Assembly (NCBI GenBank): GCA_020053305.1
Contig: JAGVNJ010000074.1
Span: 7,348-71,347, forward strand
Source of the DNA: Candidatus Edwardsbacteria bacterium
Lineage (GTDB): Bacteria > Edwardsbacteria > AC1 > EtOH8
Direction of reading: 5' to 3'
Length of the DNA: 64,000 bases
The position numbers and the translations under genes were made by a program. Below, piece after piece: positions 1,599 through 54,266 of the stretch; the first letter of the stretch is position 1, and the number at the start of each line of letters is the position of its first letter. The notes under the pieces are model-generated. The model worked only from the letters and a program-made list of their open reading frames with translations, searched no databases and had not been told where the DNA came from.

Positions 1599-2950
1599 TG
1601 GAGAGCATGAGCCTGTCGGAGATAGCCCGGGCGGTGGGCGGGAACCTTTCCGGCCCGAATGGCCTGGCCCAAGGGGTCAGCATCGACTCCCGCACCATTA
1701 AACCGGGGGAGCTGTTCGTAGCCATAAAAGGACCCAATTTCGACGGGCAGGAATTTATAACCCAGGCAATCGGGAGCGGGGCCTCAGGGATCATAGCCTC
1801 CGGAAACATTGACCTGAAAGGCGAAAAAAATCCCGGACTGATCAAGGTGTCCGACACTCTCGGGGCGCTGAAGGAGCTGGCTTATTTTTACCGGAAAAAA
1901 TACCATCCCAAAATGATAGGCATCACCGGCACCAACGGCAAGACCTCGGTCAAGGAGATGACGGCGGCCATACTTTCCGCCAGATACAACGTCCTCAAGA
2001 ACCAAGGGAACCTGAACAACCAGTACGGCATTCCGCTGTCGCTGTTCAGACTCAGCGGAGAACACCAGATCGGGGTGATGGAGCTGGGGATGAGCGCCCT
2101 GGGCGAGATTGCCGATCTGTGCCGCCTGGTGGAGCCGGAGATCGGGATAATAACCAACGTGGGCGAGGGCCATACCCTGTTTCTGAAAGACCTGCCGACG
2201 GTGGGCCGGGCCAAGGGGGAACTGTTGGAGGCCCTTCCCAAAGGGGGGCTGGCGGTGGTCAACGGCGATGATGCCAACGTAATGCTCCAGACCGCCAGAA
2301 CCAGGGCCAAAATCATCAAGTTCGGGCTGGGCGATGATTGCCATTACAGGGCCCAGCAGATAAATTACCGCCCGGACGGGACCTCCTTCATAGTGAACGG
2401 ACAGAGGGTCATCATCAGGCAACCGGGACTGCACAATGTTTACAATTGCCTGGCGGCCATTGCTGCCGGGGAGGCCCTGGGGGTGGATATCAAAAGCGCT
2501 GCCGAAAAGCTGGCCGGGCTGAAACCAACCCCCATGCGTCTGGAGATAATACAAGCCGGCAAATTCACCATTATCAACGATGCCTATAATGCCAACCCGC
2601 CATCGATGAGGGCGGCCATCAAAGTGCTGGGTTCAATGGATGCCTCACGCCGGAAGGTTGCCATCCTGGGGGAGATGCTGGAGCTGGGGGAGATCGAAAA
2701 ATTGAGGCATCACGACATCGGGGTCTTTGCAGCGGAGCATGCCGACCTGGTGGTGGCAGTAGGCCGGCTGGGGGACCACATTCACCAGGGAGCCTCCAGC
2801 GTGAAGAAGAACAGCCGCCATTATCAGGATAATGCCGCTTTGATAGCCGAGCTGGGAACCATCTTGAAAAAGGGAGACCTGATCCTGGTAAAAGCCTCCC
2901 GGGGAGGGCATTTTGAGGAAATCGTCAACGCCATAAAAGGATTATCATAA
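1598..2950 (+). CDS. murF: UDP-N-acetylmuramoyl-tripeptide--D-alanyl-D-alanine ligase
   Basis: GITGTNGKTS P-loop and the Mur ligase middle and C-terminal domains. There is a 1-nt overlap with murE (TGATG). Confidence 0.9.
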   Translation: MESMSLSEIARAVGGNLSGPNGLAQGVSIDSRTIKPGELFVAIKGPNFDGQEFITQAIGSGASGIIASGNIDLKGEKNPGLIKVSDTLGALKELAYFYRKKYHPKMIGITGTNGKTSVKEMTAAILSARYNVLKNQGNLNNQYGIPLSLFRLSGEHQIGVMELGMSALGEIADLCRLVEPEIGIITNVGEGHTLFLKDLPTVGRAKGELLEALPKGGLAVVNGDDANVMLQTARTRAKIIKFGLGDDCHYRAQQINYRPDGTSFIVNGQRVIIRQPGLHNVYNCLAAIAAGEALGVDIKSAAEKLAGLKPTPMRLEIIQAGKFTIINDAYNANPPSMRAAIKVLGSMDASRRKVAILGEMLELGEIEKLRHHDIGVFAAEHADLVVAVGRLGDHIHQGASSVKKNSRHYQDNAALIAELGTILKKGDLILVKASRGGHFEEIVNAIKGLS

Positions 2951-4039
2951 ATGCTGTATCTGCTGTTATATCCCTTGGCCGATAAGATCCACTTCTTCAA
3001 TCTGTTCCGTTATATCACCTTCCGTTCGGCCTATGCCCTGGTGACGGCGCTGCTGATATCCTTCCTGATAGGGCCCTACATGATCCGGTGGCTTAAAAAA
3101 CTAAGGATCGGAGATACCGGCCGGGAGGACGCCCCGGACCACCATAAAAAAAAGGCCGGCACCCCCACCATGGGCGGGTTGATAATCCTGGCGGCCATAA
3201 TGATCCCGGTGCTATTATGGGCCGACTTAAGCAACCGTTACATCCAGATAGCCTCGCTGGCCACCCTGTGCCTGGGGGCCATCGGCTTCAGCGACGATTA
3301 CCTGAAGGTTGTCAAGAAACAGCCCAAGGGTCTGGTGGGCAGGAAAAAGCTGGCCGGCCAGATCGCCCTGTCGCTGGTGATAGGAGCCATTCTGGTCATC
3401 TATCCGTTGAACCCGGAGTTCGCCACCAAGACCAATTTTCTGTTCTTTAAAAATATCTTCGTCGATCTGGCCTGGTGGCTGTTCATTCCTTTTGTGGTGA
3501 TGGTCATAGTGGGGACCTCCAATGCCGTCAACCTGACCGACGGCCTGGACGGTCTGGCTATCGGGGTGGTGCTGTTCGCCGCCGCGGCCTATGCCGTGAT
3601 GTGCTATTTTGCCGGGAATTACAAGCTGGCCAGCTATCTCAACATCATATTCATGAAGGGCTCGGGAGAGCTGACCGTATTCTGTTCGGCCATTGTCGGG
3701 GCTTCGCTGGGCTTCCTGTGGTATAACGCCCATCCGGCCGAGATCATGATGGGCGACACCGGGTCGCTGGCCCTGGGCGGGGCCATAGGCACCACCGCCG
3801 TTCTGATCAAGCAGGAGATACTGCTGCTGATCGTGGGCGGGGTATTCGTGATGGAGGCCCTGTCGGTGATCCTGCAGGTGGCTTCCTTCAAACTGACCGG
3901 AAAACGGATCTTCAGAATGGCCCCCATCCACCATCATTTTACCATGAAAGGCTGGAGCGAGGAAAAGATAGTCACCCGCTTCTGGATAATAGCCCTGATC
4001 TGCGCCCTGGTGGCCCTCAGCACCCTGAAGATAAGATAG
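2951..4039 (+). CDS. mraY: phospho-N-acetylmuramoyl-pentapeptide transferase
   Basis: Polytopic membrane protein with the MraY signature stretches (NAVNLTDGLDGLA, MGDTGSLALGG), in dcw position. Confidence 0.95.
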   Translation: MLYLLLYPLADKIHFFNLFRYITFRSAYALVTALLISFLIGPYMIRWLKKLRIGDTGREDAPDHHKKKAGTPTMGGLIILAAIMIPVLLWADLSNRYIQIASLATLCLGAIGFSDDYLKVVKKQPKGLVGRKKLAGQIALSLVIGAILVIYPLNPEFATKTNFLFFKNIFVDLAWWLFIPFVVMVIVGTSNAVNLTDGLDGLAIGVVLFAAAAYAVMCYFAGNYKLASYLNIIFMKGSGELTVFCSAIVGASLGFLWYNAHPAEIMMGDTGSLALGGAIGTTAVLIKQEILLLIVGGVFVMEALSVILQVASFKLTGKRIFRMAPIHHHFTMKGWSEEKIVTRFWIIALICALVALSTLKIR

Positions 4040-31991: not shown

Positions 31992-33476
31992 ATGAAAAAG
32001 AACATCCTGGCATTTTCCCTGCTGGCCTTTTTTTCCTGCAGCAGCCCGCAGCAGCAGACCTTGCGGATAGCCATCAGCGAAGGACTGATCAGCTTTGACC
32101 CCCATACCCAGGACGAGCTGGTCACCATGGAGGTTCTGGGCAATGTCTACGAAACCCTGGTATCTTTCGATGTCGACATGCAATTCGTGCCGATGCTGTG
32201 CACCGGATACAGCAACGTCACCGACCGGGCCTGGCGTTTTTATATCAGGCCGGGGGTGAAATTCCATAACGGTAAATCCCTGTCGGCGGCGGATGTCATC
32301 TACAGCCTGGGCCGGGCCAGGAACCACCGGGCATCGGTCTTTAAAAGCATGCTGGCCGGGATCGATAGTATACAAAAAGTGGACAGCCTGACCGTCGAGA
32401 TATCAACCGCCAAACCGCGCCCCAACCTGATAAACACCCTGGCCATGATAAGCATCATCCCCGCCCAATCCGATCCGGCAAAACAGCCGGTAGGCACCGG
32501 GCCCTATTCCGTCGCTGTATTCAATGGCCGGGATATCCTGTATCTGGACAAGTTCAAGAGTTATTGGGGCGAGGAGCCGTTCTTCAATAAAGCGGAGTTC
32601 CATATAATCCCGGAGGATTCCCTGCGGGTGGAAAAACTGCTGAGCGGCAAGATGGATATCGATGCCAATGTCATGGAAAACTACCGCACCAGGCTGTCCG
32701 GCGATGACAAGATAAACCTGGTGACCAAGCCGGGCGCCACCATTACCATCTTAGGGTTGAATACCTCTGGCAAATTCAATGACAATCCTCTATCCGATAT
32801 CCGGCTGCGCCAGGCGATATCCCTGGCCCTAAACCGCCGGGAGATGGTCGCCAAAGCCTGCCACGGACACGCTGTTCCCGCCAACCAGATAGCAACCCAG
32901 GCCATATTCGGCTATGATCCGGACCTTCCTGAAATTGAGCAGAATATTGAAAAAGCCCGCCTGCTTATTCGCCACTTGAAAGCGCCCGATCCGATCGAAC
33001 TGACCATAATGGTATCGACCGCCGCCTGGTTCGAAGGACAGATCCTGGCGGAATTCCTGGCGCCCATAGGAGTAAAGCTGACGGTAGACACACTATCGTG
33101 GACGGAATTGTATAATTCCATCGAGTCCGGGCAGGCAAAATTTTATCTGATGGGTTTTGCTTACAGTTTCGGAGATGCCAGCGAACTGTTAAACGATATG
33201 GTCCATTCCAAAAGCGGCACCCAGGATTTCGGCATCCGCAACCTGGCGGGGTACATTAATCCCAAACTTGATCAAATCATCGAACAGGCCGACCGCGAGT
33301 TTGATCCGGCCAGGCGTAAGCAGTTACTGCAGGAGGCCATCAGGATAACGACCAACGACCTTCCCTTTATCCCCCTGTATATCCGGGACAGCAGCTACGG
33401 ATTGCGCCAGGGCCTGGCCTGGCAGCAGAAGACAGCTTCGGTTATGCTGGTCAAAGAGATCCACCCTCAAAAATAA
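31992..33476 (+). CDS. ABC-type periplasmic solute-binding protein, family 5 (peptide/nickel type), lipoprotein
   Basis: Lipobox (FFSC) and the SBP_bac_5 architecture. No adjacent permease or ATPase genes. Confidence 0.8.
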   Translation: MKKNILAFSLLAFFSCSSPQQQTLRIAISEGLISFDPHTQDELVTMEVLGNVYETLVSFDVDMQFVPMLCTGYSNVTDRAWRFYIRPGVKFHNGKSLSAADVIYSLGRARNHRASVFKSMLAGIDSIQKVDSLTVEISTAKPRPNLINTLAMISIIPAQSDPAKQPVGTGPYSVAVFNGRDILYLDKFKSYWGEEPFFNKAEFHIIPEDSLRVEKLLSGKMDIDANVMENYRTRLSGDDKINLVTKPGATITILGLNTSGKFNDNPLSDIRLRQAISLALNRREMVAKACHGHAVPANQIATQAIFGYDPDLPEIEQNIEKARLLIRHLKAPDPIELTIMVSTAAWFEGQILAEFLAPIGVKLTVDTLSWTELYNSIESGQAKFYLMGFAYSFGDASELLNDMVHSKSGTQDFGIRNLAGYINPKLDQIIEQADREFDPARRKQLLQEAIRITTNDLPFIPLYIRDSSYGLRQGLAWQQKTASVMLVKEIHPQK

Positions 33477-48902: not shown

Positions 48903-48996
48903 GTCATTGCGAGAAAACTTCAAAGCAGAGCAGACGAAGCAATCTGGACAATAGGGGATTGCTTCATCAGTCGGATAAAAGTCGGTTCGCAATGAC
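48903..48996. mobile_element. 94-bp gene-less MITE-like copy of the GIY-YIG element termini
   Basis: GTCATTGCGAG-N-CGAAGCAATC-N11-GGATTGCTTCA-N-TCGCAATGAC: two nested perfect inverted repeats identical to the ends flanking both GIY-YIG genes. Confidence 0.65.
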
Positions 48997-49029
48997 CACT
49001 GGTAAATTATAAATCAACAAAAGGATAAT

Positions 49030-49392
49030 ATGTTTCGTATCCTCTGTAAATCCAAGATCCACCGGGCCACCCTAAGCGGGGCCAACCTGCATTACGAGGG
49101 TTCCATCGCCATAGATGAGGCGCTGATCGAGGCGGCTGATATCCTGCCCAACGAGATCGTGCAGGTGGTGAACATCAACAACGGGAACCGTTTTGAGACC
49201 TATGTGATCAAGGCTCCCAGAAGGTCCGGCACCATCACCCTTAACGGGGCGGCGGCCCGCTTGGGCCTGCCCGGCGACAAGGTTATCGTCATCTCCTCCT
49301 GCTACAAAGAGGATGCCGAGGCCAGAAAGCACCAGCCGAAGATCGTCTGCGTGGACGACAGGAATCGCATCGCCAAAAAGACCAAGCTATGA
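49030..49392 (+). CDS. panD: aspartate 1-decarboxylase
   Basis: The N-terminal [30 protein letters not shown] includes the self-processing G-S site. Confidence 0.9.
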
Positions 49393-50129
49393 CCAGGGAC
49401 TGCATCTGCCTGATCTTGGCGGCGGGCCAGGGCACCCGGATGAAGTCCGACCTGGCCAAGGTGCTGCATCCCCTGTGCGGAAAGCCGTTGGTGGAGCATG
49501 TGGTACGCTCGGCCCAGAAGGCCGGTGTGGCCAGGACCGTGGTCATCGTCGGCCACCAGGCCGACCAGGTCAAAGCGGCGCTGAAGGATTTGGACATAGA
49601 GTTCGTACTTCAGGCCGAGCAGAAGGGCACCGGCCACGCAGTGATGCAGGCCCTGCCCATCATAGAGAAATTTGCCGGCGAACTGCTGGTGCTTTACGGC
49701 GACGTGCCGATGATCAAACCCGAGACCATTGTCTCATTGCTGAAAAGTCATAGAGATGAGCGCAACGCCTGCACCATGCTAAGCACGGTCATAGACCAGC
49801 CCGGGGGCTACGGCCGGGTGATCCGGGATGCCGATGGCTTCGTCACCAAGATAGTGGAGGCCAGGGACGCTTCGCCGGAAGAGCTGGCGGTCAAGGAGAT
49901 CAACCCGGCCATCTATTCCTTCGAGAACCAGAAATTGGTGGCGGCCCTGGGCGAATTGGCACCCAACAACAAGCAGGGCGAATATTACCTGACCGACGTG
50001 ATCGGGATATTCAGGTCAAAGGAAATGAAGATCGCGGCCCAGGTGGTGGCCGACAGCCGGGAGGTGCTGGGCATCAATACCCCCCAAGAGCTGGCGGAGT
50101 GCGAGGAATACCTTCGTCGTCAACAATAG
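49389..50129 (+). CDS. sugar-phosphate nucleotidyltransferase resembling the GlmU N-terminal uridyltransferase domain (no LbH acetyltransferase domain)
   Basis: [31 protein letters not shown] closely matches the GlmU N-terminus. At 246 aa it ends before any hexapeptide-repeat domain. There is a 4-nt overlap with panD. Confidence 0.75.
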
Positions 50130-50147
50130 CAATCAACCCGACTTTTA

Positions 50148-50530
50148 GTCATTGTGTAACGAAGCAATCTTCTTGTTGACTTTCAAACCATGGGACGCGA
50201 GTATTATTTCTATATAATGTCAAACAAATGGAACTCGGCATTATATTCAGGCGTGACCAACAATCTCAAGCGCCGCATAGTGGAGCATAAGCAAAAGCGT
50301 CCCGGAAGTTTTACTTCGCGTTATAATATTACAAAACTTGTTTATTTTGAGATATTCAATAATCCCAGGGATGCCATCAAAAGAGAGAAGCAGATCAAGG
50401 CTGGCCCGCGAAAGCAGAAGCAAGAGTTGATCGAAAGCATCAATCCGAAATACAGTGATCTATCAGAGAACCTATAAATAGCCCGGCGGGGATTGCTTCG
50501 TCGCATTCTTTTGAAGCTCCTCGCAATGAC
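50148..50530. mobile_element. TIR-bounded GIY-YIG mini-element, copy 1
   Basis: Left end GTCATTGTGTAACGAAGCAATC (50148-50169); right end GGATTGCTTCG..(20 nt)..TCGCAATGAC (50490-50530). The extended match CTTTTAGTCATTG/CAATGACTAAAAG makes the termini inverted repeats. Confidence 0.65.
50190..50477 (+). CDS. GIY-YIG nuclease domain protein (COG2827/UPF0213-like)
   Basis: YYFYIM...LYSGVTNNLKRRIVEH...KLVYFE.F......REKQIK: GIY-YIG motifs with the catalytic Arg and Glu. Confidence 0.8.
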   Translation: MGREYYFYIMSNKWNSALYSGVTNNLKRRIVEHKQKRPGSFTSRYNITKLVYFEIFNNPRDAIKREKQIKAGPRKQKQELIESINPKYSDLSENL

Positions 50531-50551
50531 TAAAAGCGATAAAATAAAGAG

Positions 50552-51022
50552 ATGTCAACAGCAGATTTGAAAAACCGTCCGGCCAAGACCGGCCGCAACA
50601 GATACCTGCCTCTGGCGGTGATATTCCTGGTCGTCGTCCTGGCGGTCATCGGCGGCTCGGTCTACATGCGCTGGCGGCAGAACCGGCAGGCCGATCTCAA
50701 GCAGAGAAAGGCCCAGATCCGGATAGAGGTGCTTAACGGCACCAAGAAAAGCGGGCTGGCCCAGGAAGTGGCCCAGCAGCTGCGGGACAGCGGCTTCGAC
50801 GTGGTGGACATCGCCAATGCCGAGAACGACAGCTTCCCGGAGACGGTGGTGGTGGACCGGGCCGACGACGGCCAGAGCAACGCCATTTTGGTGGCCAAAG
50901 AACTCAAATGCAAAAACATAATACCACAAATAGAACCAACATCATTATTGGAGGTTACAGTAATAATTGGCCAAGATCATCTTAAAGAAAAGAAAAAAGG
51001 CTTCCTCGGCATCAGTTTCTGA
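50552..51022 (+). CDS. LytR_C (LytR/CpsA/Psr C-terminal) domain protein, membrane-anchored
   Basis: N-terminal TM segment, then IRIEVLNGTKKSGLAQEVAQQLRDSGFDVVDIANAEN...TVVV. Confidence 0.7.
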   Translation: MSTADLKNRPAKTGRNRYLPLAVIFLVVVLAVIGGSVYMRWRQNRQADLKQRKAQIRIEVLNGTKKSGLAQEVAQQLRDSGFDVVDIANAENDSFPETVVVDRADDGQSNAILVAKELKCKNIIPQIEPTSLLEVTVIIGQDHLKEKKKGFLGISF

Positions 51023-51491
51023 TGTCTTGAAGAAGAAGCCCGCAGCAAGGTCCAAGATCAAACCCGGCACCGCCAAGGCCAAGAGCCTGGCCCGGGAAAA
51101 GCCGGCGGCGCCCAAAGCGAAAGCCCCGGCCAAGGCCCGGGTGGTCAGCCCCGGGCAGCAGCTGGCCCGGGAAATAGCCCAGCTGACCCTCAACCGGAAG
51201 GCTTTCGATGTGACGGTGCTGGACGTCAGGGGGCTTTCCACCGCCACCGACTTCTTCGTGATCGCCTCCGGCGCCACCGACATCCAGATCCGGGCCATCC
51301 GCCGGGCCATCGAGGAGGGTCTGCTTCCCAAGGGCATCAAGGCCCTGCATATCGAGGGCGAGAAGACGGCCTCCTGGCTGCTGATGGATTACGTGGACGT
51401 GGTGGTGCACATCATGCAGCCCCGGGTGCGCGACTATTACAACCTGGAAGCCCTATGGGGCGACGCGCCCAGCGAAGAGATAAAAGATTAG
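50967..51491 (+). CDS. rsfS: ribosomal silencing factor RsfS (Iojap) with Lys/Ala-rich N-terminal extension
   Basis: The C-terminal 115 aa match RsfS (DVTVLDVRGLSTATDFFVIASG...SWLLMDYVDVVVHIMQP). The first 58 aa are K/A/P-rich and overlap the LytR_C gene; a GTG at 51141 would give a canonical-length RsfS. Confidence 0.75.
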   Translation: MAKIILKKRKKASSASVSDVLKKKPAARSKIKPGTAKAKSLAREKPAAPKAKAPAKARVVSPGQQLAREIAQLTLNRKAFDVTVLDVRGLSTATDFFVIASGATDIQIRAIRRAIEEGLLPKGIKALHIEGEKTASWLLMDYVDVVVHIMQPRVRDYYNLEALWGDAPSEEIKD

Positions 51492-51569
51492 CTTTTACTG
51501 ATAACCGCTGCCAGCCTTACTTCTTTGAGGCACTGATAAAGCGATCCAGTTATAAGTAAAGCACGAAAA

Positions 51570-51969
51570 GTCATTGCGAGTATACTTCCCTGATAAACAA
51601 ATGAAGCAATCCATTTATCATGTTTGGCAAAAAATATTTTGTATATATTCTGGCCAGCAAGAAAAACGGGACTTTGTATGTCGGGGTTACAAACGATCTT
51701 AAGCGCAGGGTGGCCGAACACAGAAACGGAGTGATCCCTGGCTTTGCGAAAAGATATAAAACCTTTTTACTGGTTCATTTTGAAGCGTTTGATGAACCGA
51801 GATTTGCTATTGCTATGGAAAAGCAGTTGAAGGCCGGGTCACGGGCAAATAAAATAAGACTTGTAGAACGGGATAATCCCGATTGGCTCGATCTGTTTGA
51901 AAAGATATAATACAAAGTTGTTATTTGTGGATTGCTTCGTTAGCTATATAAAATCATTCTCGCAATGAC
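51570..51969. mobile_element. TIR-bounded GIY-YIG mini-element, copy 2
   Basis: Left end GTCATTGCGAG..(21)..GAAGCAATC (51570-51611); right end GGATTGCTTCG..(20)..TCGCAATGAC (51929-51969). Confidence 0.65.
51620..51910 (+). CDS. GIY-YIG nuclease domain protein (paralog)
   Basis: KYFVYILASKKNGTLYVGVTNDLKRRVAEH...REKQLK; divergent from copy 1 but collinear with it. Confidence 0.8.
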   Translation: MFGKKYFVYILASKKNGTLYVGVTNDLKRRVAEHRNGVIPGFAKRYKTFLLVHFEAFDEPRFAIAMEKQLKAGSRANKIRLVERDNPDWLDLFEKI

Positions 51970-52038
51970 AGAGGGACAATTTATTTATTATACCCAGAAT
52001 AATATTTCACAAAGACAAAATAGATTGTTTCACAAGTA

Positions 52039-52064
52039 GGGCAATGATGTCGTTTCGCAATGAC
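52039..52064. repeat. solo remnant of GIY-YIG element end (GGGCAATGAtgtcgtTTCGCAATGAC)
   Basis: Matches the right-end motif TCGCAATGAC; lies 15 bp upstream of argS. Confidence 0.4.
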
Positions 52065-53744: not shown

Positions 53745-54266
53745 TTGACCTCACCCCTGCCCCTCTCCAAAGGCATTTGGAGAGGGAGGTTGTAATGAGT
53801 AAAAGCATTTATGGCAAGTACAAAGAATTTTGGTGTCAGCACCGGCCGCCGGATCAAGAACGAAAAACTAGAAATGGCCAAACAAATGCGGCGGGAGATG
53901 ACCTATGCCGAGCGGTGTTTTTGGAACGGGGTCAGGGGCCGCAAACTGCATGGCTTGAAGTTCCGCCGCCAGCAGATCATAGACGGGTTTATAGCTGATT
54001 TCTATTGTAATGAGTTAAGGCTGATTGTTGAGATAGACGGCGGTGTTCATGAGACCCAGAAGGATTACGATAAACTGCGCGACAGGATAATCAGCCGGAA
54101 TGAAATTAAAGTGATCCGGTTTTCCAACGAGTTAGTCGTAGACCAGTTTGATACTGTGGCCAGACGTATTGGTGAACTACGTCCTCCCTCGCCAGGTTTA
54201 CCTGGAGAGAGCCTGCACCGAGATGGCCACAATAAATGACAAACGAAAGTGGGCAGGGGTGAGGTC
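53745..54266. mobile_element. DUF559 endonuclease module bounded by 16-bp inverted repeats and hairpins
   Basis: TTGACCTCACCCCTGCCC (53745-53762) and its reverse complement GGGCAGGGGTGAGGTC (54251-54266). Internal hairpins CCCCTCTCCAAAggcaTTTGGAGAGGG and CCTCCCTCgCCAGGtttaCCTGGAGAGAG sit at the two ends of the gene. Confidence 0.55.
53874..54239 (+). CDS. DUF559 (Vsr/PD-(D/E)xK-like) endonuclease domain protein
   Basis: ..AKQMRREMTYAERCFWNGVRGRKLHGLKFRRQQIIDGFIADFYCNELRLIVEIDGGVHE.. is canonical DUF559. The start is set at the internal ATG 53874; the ORF-track start is 53811. The C-terminal tail PPSPGLPGESLHRDGHNK is encoded by hairpin DNA. Confidence 0.75.
   Translation: MAKQMRREMTYAERCFWNGVRGRKLHGLKFRRQQIIDGFIADFYCNELRLIVEIDGGVHETQKDYDKLRDRIISRNEIKVIRFSNELVVDQFDTVARRIGELRPPSPGLPGESLHRDGHNK

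Follow-up and report, generated by a model that had tools for sequence, protein, structure and literature searches.

What are two small nuclease genes, each set between inverted repeats, doing in the spacers of a row of housekeeping genes? The question is raised by a 64-kb stretch of a Candidatus Edwardsbacteria genome (contig JAGVNJ010000074.1, positions 7,348 to 71,347; hereafter the window), in which two divergent paralogs for GIY-YIG proteins of about 95 aa, here named ssn1 and ssn2, lie 1.1 kb apart and have one type of repeat motif in common. In the original prediction, each gene and its repeats formed a unit of a mobile element bounded by terminal inverted repeats (TIRs), of a family not previously described. 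The likeness to an insertion sequence (IS) is real, and so are the gene-less derivatives of the units; what did not hold up is mobility in this lineage, because the units sit at fixed syntenic loci, vary among relatives by deletion and lack target-site duplications. Neither is the family undescribed: the units belong to the Ssn/SRM system (SRM, Ssn-related motif), which Chenal et al. described in 2025 (PMC11893778), and its repeats are CGTC-tagged repetitive extragenic palindromes, or REPs (PMC3733652). We read the locus as two paralogous ssn genes with their cognate, variant SRMs, which are long resident here and do not constitute an active transposon, and we put the probability of this reading as a whole at about 85%.

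It was the repeat sequence that led to the published system; a literature search for UPF0213/COG2827 or GIY-YIG proteins with terminal inverted or REP repeats gave nothing relevant. That report (Chenal et al. 2025, Nat Commun 16:2388) describes SsnA of Neisseria meningitidis, a single-domain GIY-YIG protein of 94 aa (CDD cd10448, GIY-YIG_unchar_3) that binds a repeat named NTS (CGTCATTCCCGCGMAVGCGGGAATCYRG) only as single-stranded DNA (ssDNA) and cuts it, in a strand-specific manner, a few nucleotides upstream, with no activity on double-stranded DNA (dsDNA) or RNA; cutting depends most on the three nucleotides 5' of the palindrome, and binding on the C directly 3' of it (PMC11893778). Homologs across phyla have at least one flanking SRM in 71% of cases and SRMs on both sides in 42%, the Neisseria enzyme restricts transforming DNA, and an IS-like origin was raised by those authors, mobility not being demonstrated there (PMC11893778). 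The CGTC-tagged REPs, which include dRS3 of Neisseria and RPE-4/6 of Rickettsia, were in turn said in 2013 to 'lack a dedicated transposase' (Di Nocera et al., BMC Genomics 2013; PMC3733652).

Both window proteins are members of the Ssn family, as follows from their gapless identity to SsnA and from their conserved catalytic residues. As a reference we took an open reading frame (ORF) from an N. gonorrhoeae chromosome filed as a plasmid (L218:1501-1773, L218 being NZ_CP119142.1 1880219-1883485), because it gives a 94-aa reading, has Y6/Y17/E64 and is surrounded by canonical NTS repeats. BLASTP aligns this SsnA ortholog without gaps to the ssn2 protein, at 49% identity over 86 aa (E 6e-30), and to the ssn1 protein, at 43% over 84 aa (E 1e-22); both values lie below the E < 1e-10 by which Ssn homology was defined (Chenal et al. 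2025, PMC11893778). The Pfam GIY-YIG domain (PF01541) covers residues 5-75 of ssn1 (E 9e-15) and 5-79 of ssn2 (E 1e-15), and the Pfam search of the two proteins returned no other significant domain. Across a 19-sequence family alignment, Tyr, Tyr, Arg, His, Glu and Asn are invariant, corresponding to Y8, Y19, R29, H33, E66 and N85 in ssn1 and to Y9, Y20, R30, H34, E67 and N86 in ssn2, and the Tyr-Tyr-Glu spacings of 11 and 47 are those of Y6, Y17 and E64 in the meningococcal enzyme. To judge from these residues, both proteins look catalytically intact. NCBIfam holds no model specific to the Ssn family, and exact-sequence look-ups of both proteins gave no match; the relatives were found through homologs, the nearest named one, at 84% identity, coming from GCA_001777935.1.

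PLSDB holds two N. gonorrhoeae records of 2.17 Mb that are filed as plasmids. In L218 (about 1494-1773) there is an ATG at 1494 that is out of frame with the conserved SsnA frame, which begins at 1501, and this gonococcal ssnA may have a frameshifted 5' end or an alternative start.

Homologs of ssn make up at least 600 matching stretches across phyla, with none found in 50,697 phage records. The matches on plasmids are mostly to megaplasmids, chromids or mislabelled chromosomes, 35 of 36 being non-mobilizable, and for that reason we see no evidence of plasmid-borne spread. The two window paralogs share 47% identity, and the identity of each with proteins from other phyla is about 60-67%; since they are closer to these than to one another, the comparison points to independent acquisitions.

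The nature of the repeats is clearest from the flanks of the homologs, which we compared at 80 loci taken from species-representative genomes across many phyla. For most of the genes, the upstream and the downstream flank form an inverted repeat far longer than in shuffled sequence, and one theme recurs: TGTCAT-TCCCGCG-AAA-CGCGGGA-ATCCAG ahead of the gene and the reverse complement of this sequence behind it. Each flank end is thus a short palindrome with GTC as its fixed head and C(CAG) as its tail, so that the outer and inner boxes of the window repeats are halves of one motif, and what had been described as nested inverted repeats are two oppositely oriented copies of it; the inverted repeats themselves are genuine, but their outer and inner parts together make a single motif of 22-42 nt. 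Tested at 76 of the loci, GTC followed by a palindrome of at least 5 bp and a C, forward upstream of the gene and reversed downstream, occurs at 38, against 1 of 54 control windows placed 1.6-1.9 kb away. The published SRM pattern (HGTCWYN(0-2)YYVSBRHN(0-5)WNVSBRGN(0-2)RNCYNB) matches the canonical NTS and 40 of the same 76 loci; 11 of the 76 carry the exact Neisseria NTS consensus.

In the window, the motif consists of a GTC head, a 5-bp stem ATTGC/GCAAT that encloses conserved GAG...(C)GAA purines and a variable insert, and a C(C) tail, with an interior of 10-29 nt. All seven motifs at the repeat ends read GTC-ATTG(C/T)...(G/A)CAAT-C, and all retain the GTC head 5' of the palindrome and the C just 3' of it, that is, the nucleotides that are critical in the published experiments. 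The window repeat ends are a variant SRM, or CGTC/TGTC-tagged REP, with an unusually long interior that appears largely unstructured. Both ssn1 and ssn2 are bracketed by motifs in inverted orientation with the heads outward, and at unit B, which holds ssn1, the inverted repeat extends 6 nt past the heads (CTTTTA-GTCAT...ATGAC-TAAAAG). Chance does not account for these repeats: with at most one mismatch, GTCATTGCGAG has 7 matches in the window where 0.9 are expected, a number reached in 0 of 100 shuffles, and 6 of the 7 fall within 48903-52064, each with the 10-mer CGAAGCAATC as its partner. When the search for these boxes proposed in the original prediction was run over the 64 kb with two mismatches allowed, it gave no additional convincing copy, so that the motifs are confined to the region of the ssn locus and the remaining ~61 kb are motif-free. 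In total, eight motifs lie around the ssn genes, seven repeat ends and one degenerate end (Table 1).

The positions of the units and of both ORFs are as originally placed, and so are the housekeeping-gene spacers in which they lie: panC, panD, NTP_transferase (the nucleotidyltransferase), LytR_C, RsfS and ArgS were assigned through the Pfam labels of syntenic relatives. That identical repeats delimit every unit is true for the most part, the left outer box of unit B being degenerate (GTCATTGTGTA). The genes of the region are all co-oriented and tightly packed, and the motifs are probably transcribed.

Table 1. Units, motifs and genes of the ssn locus (window coordinates)
Feature	Position	Strand	Length	Remarks
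Gene-less unit	48903-48996		94 bp	panC/panD spacer
Unit B	50148-50530		383 bp	encloses ORF 50190-50477
Unit C	51570-51969		400 bp	encloses ORF 51620-51910
SRM-like motif, left half of gene-less tail-to-tail doublet	48903-48944	+		GTCATTGCGAG, 21-nt insert, CGAAGCAATC
SRM-like motif, right half of gene-less doublet	48957-48996	-		tails 11-12 nt apart
Left SRM of ssn1	50148-50169	+		short form with degenerate box 1; GTCATTGTGTAACGAAGCAATC
ssn1	50190-50477	+	95 aa	single-domain GIY-YIG gene (Ssn family)
Right SRM of ssn1	50491-50530	-		
Outer-left SRM (L2), degenerate	51500-51549	+		lacks box 1; box 2 and tail AGCGATCCAG kept
Inner-left SRM (L1) of ssn2	51570-51611	+		
ssn2	51620-51910	+	96 aa	single-domain GIY-YIG gene (Ssn family)
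Inner-right SRM (R1) of ssn2	51930-51969	-		
Outer-right SRM (R2)	52023-52064	-		14 nt upstream of the argS ATG (52079)

The locus and the published Ssn/SRM system are alike in the gene, which encodes a single-domain GIY-YIG protein of about 95 aa with 43-49% gapless identity to SsnA and the same Tyr/Tyr/Glu spacing, in the oriented repeats around it, with their GTC head, AT-started palindrome and C tail, and in the presence of gene-less copies nearby. In spite of these similarities, they differ in several respects: (i) the window motif has the stem ATTGC/GCAAT, the purines GAG...GAA and an interior of 10-29 nt, whereas the published one is ATTCCCGCG-MAV-CGCGGGAAT; (ii) two divergent paralogs go with one motif type, in a Candidatus Edwardsbacteria host; and (iii) the copy number appears very low, with 64 kb holding no copy outside the locus. 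A comparable picture emerges with the CGTC/TGTC-tagged REPs, with which the window motifs share the (C/T)GTC head, a stem starting with AT, a short CC(A) tail, an intergenic location and the formation of dimers. In contrast to the window motifs, with their 5-bp stem and long interior, the published REPs have stems of 8-9 bp and loops of 4-5 nt, and their dimers are mostly head-to-head; the pairing is tail-to-tail in the window and, among the metagenome matches listed, in 35 of 46 pairings.

The window motif is not a peculiarity of this genome. A compact version, GTCATTGCGAG-CGAAG-CGAAGCAATCCAG, and its relatives flank ssn genes in metagenome-assembled genomes (MAGs) of Rhodospirillales and Acinetobacter and in Rhodopseudomonas palustris, whose strain JSC-3b carries several copies beside its ssn gene. 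A scan for the window-type motif finds at least 120 stretches in metagenomes. The 80 loci that we read among the matches listed hold 138 motif copies, of which 70 are arranged in 35 tail-to-tail doublets with centres of 10-55 nt; there are also 49 solo copies, 9 head-to-tail pairs and 2 head-to-head pairs, and a GIY-YIG (ssn) gene is present at 4 of these 80 loci. Compact metagenomic copies fold as ATTGC/GCAAT plus a second stem in which the sequence varies and the pairing is kept (GGCAC/GTGCC, GTCGGC/GCCGAC and ACC/GGT are examples). Among proteins encoded beside the ATTGC-type motif, pairwise identity is 40-68%, about the family background, and at that resolution motif type and protein clade do not co-cluster. 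One metagenomic contig (L139, Ga0137414_1173597) carries an apparent inverted copy of the doublet 3.5 kb away, which we discarded as an artefact of assembly or amplification because the 5.4-kb contig is palindromic over its whole length and folds back on itself, dozens of inverted repeats of 84-100% complementarity being mirrored around about 2.7 kb.

Short tandem arrays made up solely of the motif head precede complete motifs at some ssn genes of other phyla, with CCCCCACTTGTCATCCC repeated in L068 (about 2890-3000 and in the downstream flank) and five copies of CAACCCGCAATGACATCGA in L037 (about 2790-2900). Repeated nicking and subsequent repair at the cut site may have left such arrays as footprints.

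The history of the units can be followed in related Candidatus Edwardsbacteria genomes (L001-L013 and L094-L097), each examined over ~12 kb, among which the ssn loci are syntenic. In all relatives examined, ssn2 lies between rsfS and argS, with protein identities of 88%, 84%, 74% and 68%, and alignment of this spacer gives an ancestral, nested layout L2-L1-ssn2-R1-R2. The outer-left end is kept in L003 and L094, absent from L012 and L095 and decayed in the window, which means that R2, originally taken for a solo right end before argS, is the right arm of an old outer pair, its decayed left partner being recognisable by alignment with the relatives that keep an intact copy. All five related genomes have R2, and its boxes are 92-95% conserved. 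Among four close genomes, both boxes of R1 are 100% identical, and box 2 of L1 is 95% identical against 67% for the L1 insert; overall, the boxes are 92-100% identical in 5 of 6 cases, box 1 of L1 (77%) being the exception, against 66-82% for the inserts and 28-68% for the spacers. This better conservation of the boxes indicates that they are under constraint. Between R1 and R2 there is an AT-rich segment of ~50 bp in the window (51970-52022) and in L012 (6351-6402), where L003 and L094 have only AGAAT; it is an insertion or a deletion.

ssn1 is intact in the window and in L012. L003 has a remnant of 54 aa, left by an in-frame deletion and devoid of the catalytic Glu, and in L094 the gene and its left end are deleted; what remains in L094 is the right SRM together with the 14 nt found after the stop codon in the window, so this is the scar of a deletion and no empty site. 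In L095 and L096, which are more distant, an unrelated ORF of 218 aa takes this place. The left SRM, degenerate in the window, is intact in its L012 and L003 orthologs (GTCATTGCGAG-(a/t)(g/t)taa-CGAAGCAATC), and the right SRM is conserved in both, a small stem in its insert being kept through different sequences (GCaTTC/GAAGC in the window vs GTTCC/GGAAC in L003). The gene-less panC/panD doublet has an orthologous copy in L012 (3343-3436) and is absent from L003, L094 and L095. The Edwardsbacteria units are thus long-resident and vertically inherited, and gene-less or solo ends can arise through deletion of the gene.

Do these units move? At the ssn loci of the relatives there are neither precise empty sites nor fresh insertions, the polymorphisms being deletions with remnants; no target-site duplication or other direct repeat flanks any unit, in the window or in the relatives, so that both traces of transposition suggested for comparison are missing there. 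Near-identical copies are lacking as well, since paralogs of the same genome are 47-85% identical (66-85% in other species). Over the 64 kb of this genome and the ~12 kb compared per relative, current or recent mobility is therefore not evident in the Edwardsbacteria lineage. As for the outcome that the original prediction named as speaking against it, the same genes at identical loci with neither polymorphism nor conserved repeats, the loci are the same and free of insertion polymorphism, down to 68% identity, but the repeats are conserved.

Several observations would nevertheless suit an active or recent transposon of the IS or MITE (miniature inverted-repeat transposable element) type, in which the GIY-YIG protein would serve as a transposase acting on TIRs and the 94-bp unit would be its non-autonomous derivative: the architecture is IS-like, an idea that Chenal et al. 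also raise (PMC11893778); the motif is mostly gene-less, often in tail-to-tail doublets, in many metagenomes; the nested layout at ssn2 resembles an insertion into a doublet; the panC/panD doublet is restricted to the window and L012; and the paralogs resemble proteins of other phyla more than they resemble one another. However, both genes occupy identical syntenic sites down to 68% identity, the nested layout is itself ancient and common to the relatives, the differences among them are deletions (internal in L003, and with 14 nt kept after the stop codon in L094), flanking direct repeats and near-identical copies are lacking, and the 64 kb hold no further copy elsewhere. Moreover, GIY-YIG enzymes hydrolyse DNA and, to our knowledge, have no strand-transfer or strand-joining chemistry, and Ssn would cut each strand only once per unit. 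We consider an active or recent transposon improbable here. A different matter is the origin of the units and their behaviour elsewhere: over evolutionary time the repeat family evidently does spread, and an IS-like origin is plausible. The closest architectural parallel is REP/REPIN-RAYT, where one small nuclease gene also lies between inverted short palindromic repeats, gene-less doublets are dispersed, inheritance at a fixed locus is long and vertical, and the substrate is an ssDNA hairpin. The likeness ends there, as the window gene encodes a GIY-YIG hydrolase and RAYT is a Y1 HUH transposase domesticated from IS200/IS605, whose covalent tyrosine intermediate can rejoin strands; we know of no demonstration that Ssn drives the replication of SRM doublets. 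As a tentative proposal, with the odds against it, SRM-ssn-SRM units and gene-less doublets could be a true class of mobile DNA, moving now or recently in some lineages by means of a GIY-YIG ssDNA nickase in the manner of REPIN/RAYT, with new copies preferring existing doublets. Insertion into doublets, if true, would explain the nested L2-L1-ssn2-R1-R2 layout, and in the Edwardsbacteria locus we would then see, as a fossil series, the decay of autonomous units to doublets and solo ends.

The insertion-like appearance of the rsfS/argS arrangement could also be put down to homing, that is, to a free-standing GIY-YIG homing endonuclease gene that targets the centres of doublets and is copied in by repair, with the repeat arms as homology. 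Classical GIY-YIG homing enzymes provide the precedent, doublets with centres of 10-55 nt are common in metagenomes, and in the argS/methyltransferase spacer a DUF559 nuclease gene fills a hairpin that is empty in relatives. Yet the characterised Ssn enzymes are inactive on dsDNA, the arms offer only ~40 bp of homology, the gaps in the nested copy do not add up to the centre of a doublet, and neither ssn site has an empty-doublet allele, that of L094 being a deletion remnant. The proteins share the GIY-YIG catalytic core with I-TevI-type homing endonucleases and with the UPF0213/YhbQ-Slx1-like proteins; unlike the former, they have no DNA-binding extension beyond the catalytic core of ~95 aa and no intron or intein context, and matches to the group I intron endonuclease model are far below its cut-off. 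The nearest solved structures are UPF0213 proteins (1ZG2, E 3.5e-6; 1YWL, E 2e-4), to which they are only distantly related. Homing is, in our judgement, very unlikely. So are, to a still greater degree, elements acting at the RNA level, such as terminators, attenuators or mRNA-stabilising hairpins that lie around GIY-YIG genes by coincidence, even though the packed, co-oriented genes make transcription of the motifs probable, one terminator-like match overlaps the right motif of ssn1 and such roles have been assigned to REPs in general (Di Nocera et al. 2013, PMC3733652). There is no enrichment of terminator-like sites (6 against 4.9 expected), single motifs are not predicted to fold better than shuffled controls, an Rfam scan of the whole window at gathering thresholds finds no family, the published Ssn biochemistry is one of ssDNA and not of RNA binding (PMC11893778), and the strict, orientation-specific association with ssn across phyla argues against coincidence, all of which makes this account hardly credible.

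The reading that we prefer, resident ssn genes with cognate variant SRMs, has to contend with findings that weigh against it. The published SRM pattern matches none of the window motifs, its sole match in the window being an unrelated site (33408-33434), which is why we treat the motifs as a variant and not as literal SRMs. Folded as ssDNA under an energy model that disregards sheared G.A pairs, single window motifs reach minimum free energies of -0.5 to -3.7 kcal/mol, no better than controls with shuffled inserts (z -1.1 to +1.2), and recognition may thus differ from that of the canonical 8-bp hairpin; the gene-less doublet, taken as a 100-nt stretch, forms a long hairpin in which its two ends pair (-17.5 kcal/mol, z -3.7). 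Finally, all eight motifs in the 64 kb surround ssn genes, the genome-wide set of targets not being visible in the window, and the host-level role of Ssn in Neisseria, the restriction of transforming DNA, may for this reason not apply here.

By analogy with the Neisseria and Wolbachia homologs, Ssn would bind its motif only in single-stranded DNA, as exposed for example during replication, repair or the uptake of transforming or conjugating DNA, and would nick the motif-bearing strand a few nucleotides 5' of the GTC head. Since the heads face outward on opposite strands, the strand specificity reported for SsnA suggests a single cut in each strand, immediately outside the unit. Analogous to REP/RAYT, the system most likely descends from a once-mobile element and is now domesticated or decaying.

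Other small nuclease genes occur in the same region. In the argS/methyltransferase spacer, a DUF559 (Vsr-like endonuclease) ORF (53811-54239) lies inside a perfect 16-bp inverted repeat (GACCTCACCCCTGCCC / GGGCAGGGGTGAGGTC; window 53747-54266), with a small inner hairpin at 53763-53784, and in relatives this spacer contains only a gene-less hairpin of ~45 bp in the same style (L003 8059-8113; L094 8056-8114). This looks like a genuine polymorphism between a filled and an empty site, with a second small nuclease inside a hairpin repeat. Different small genes are found in other spacers of the pan-rsfS-argS row (L094 2012-2395 and 3299-3703; L095 2700-3086; L011/L012 1522-2409; L003 2916-3440), including PDDEXK_3 (PF13366) in panB/panC and panC/panD, PIN_12 in panB/panC and an unannotated 174-aa ORF in panC/panD. 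It seems that small nuclease genes have settled time and again in the gaps of this operon.

Taken together, these findings add no new kind of system; what is new is a motif variant that the published pattern misses. This SRM variant, with its ATTGC/GCAAT stem and GAG/GAA purines, is widespread, in metagenomes and in the flanks of ssn genes of several phyla, and because the published pattern misses it, the published counts of Ssn-motif association are underestimates. The range of ssDNA specificities usable as tools is accordingly wider than reported. Two divergent paralogs that go with one motif type in a single genome offer, in addition, a ready-made case in which to test how so small a protein recognises its site. 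For the family as a whole, the Edwardsbacteria series provides a dated, stepwise picture of vertical residence, of conservation of the boxes and of gene decay to solo and paired repeats, and it bears on whether these units are domesticated transposons.

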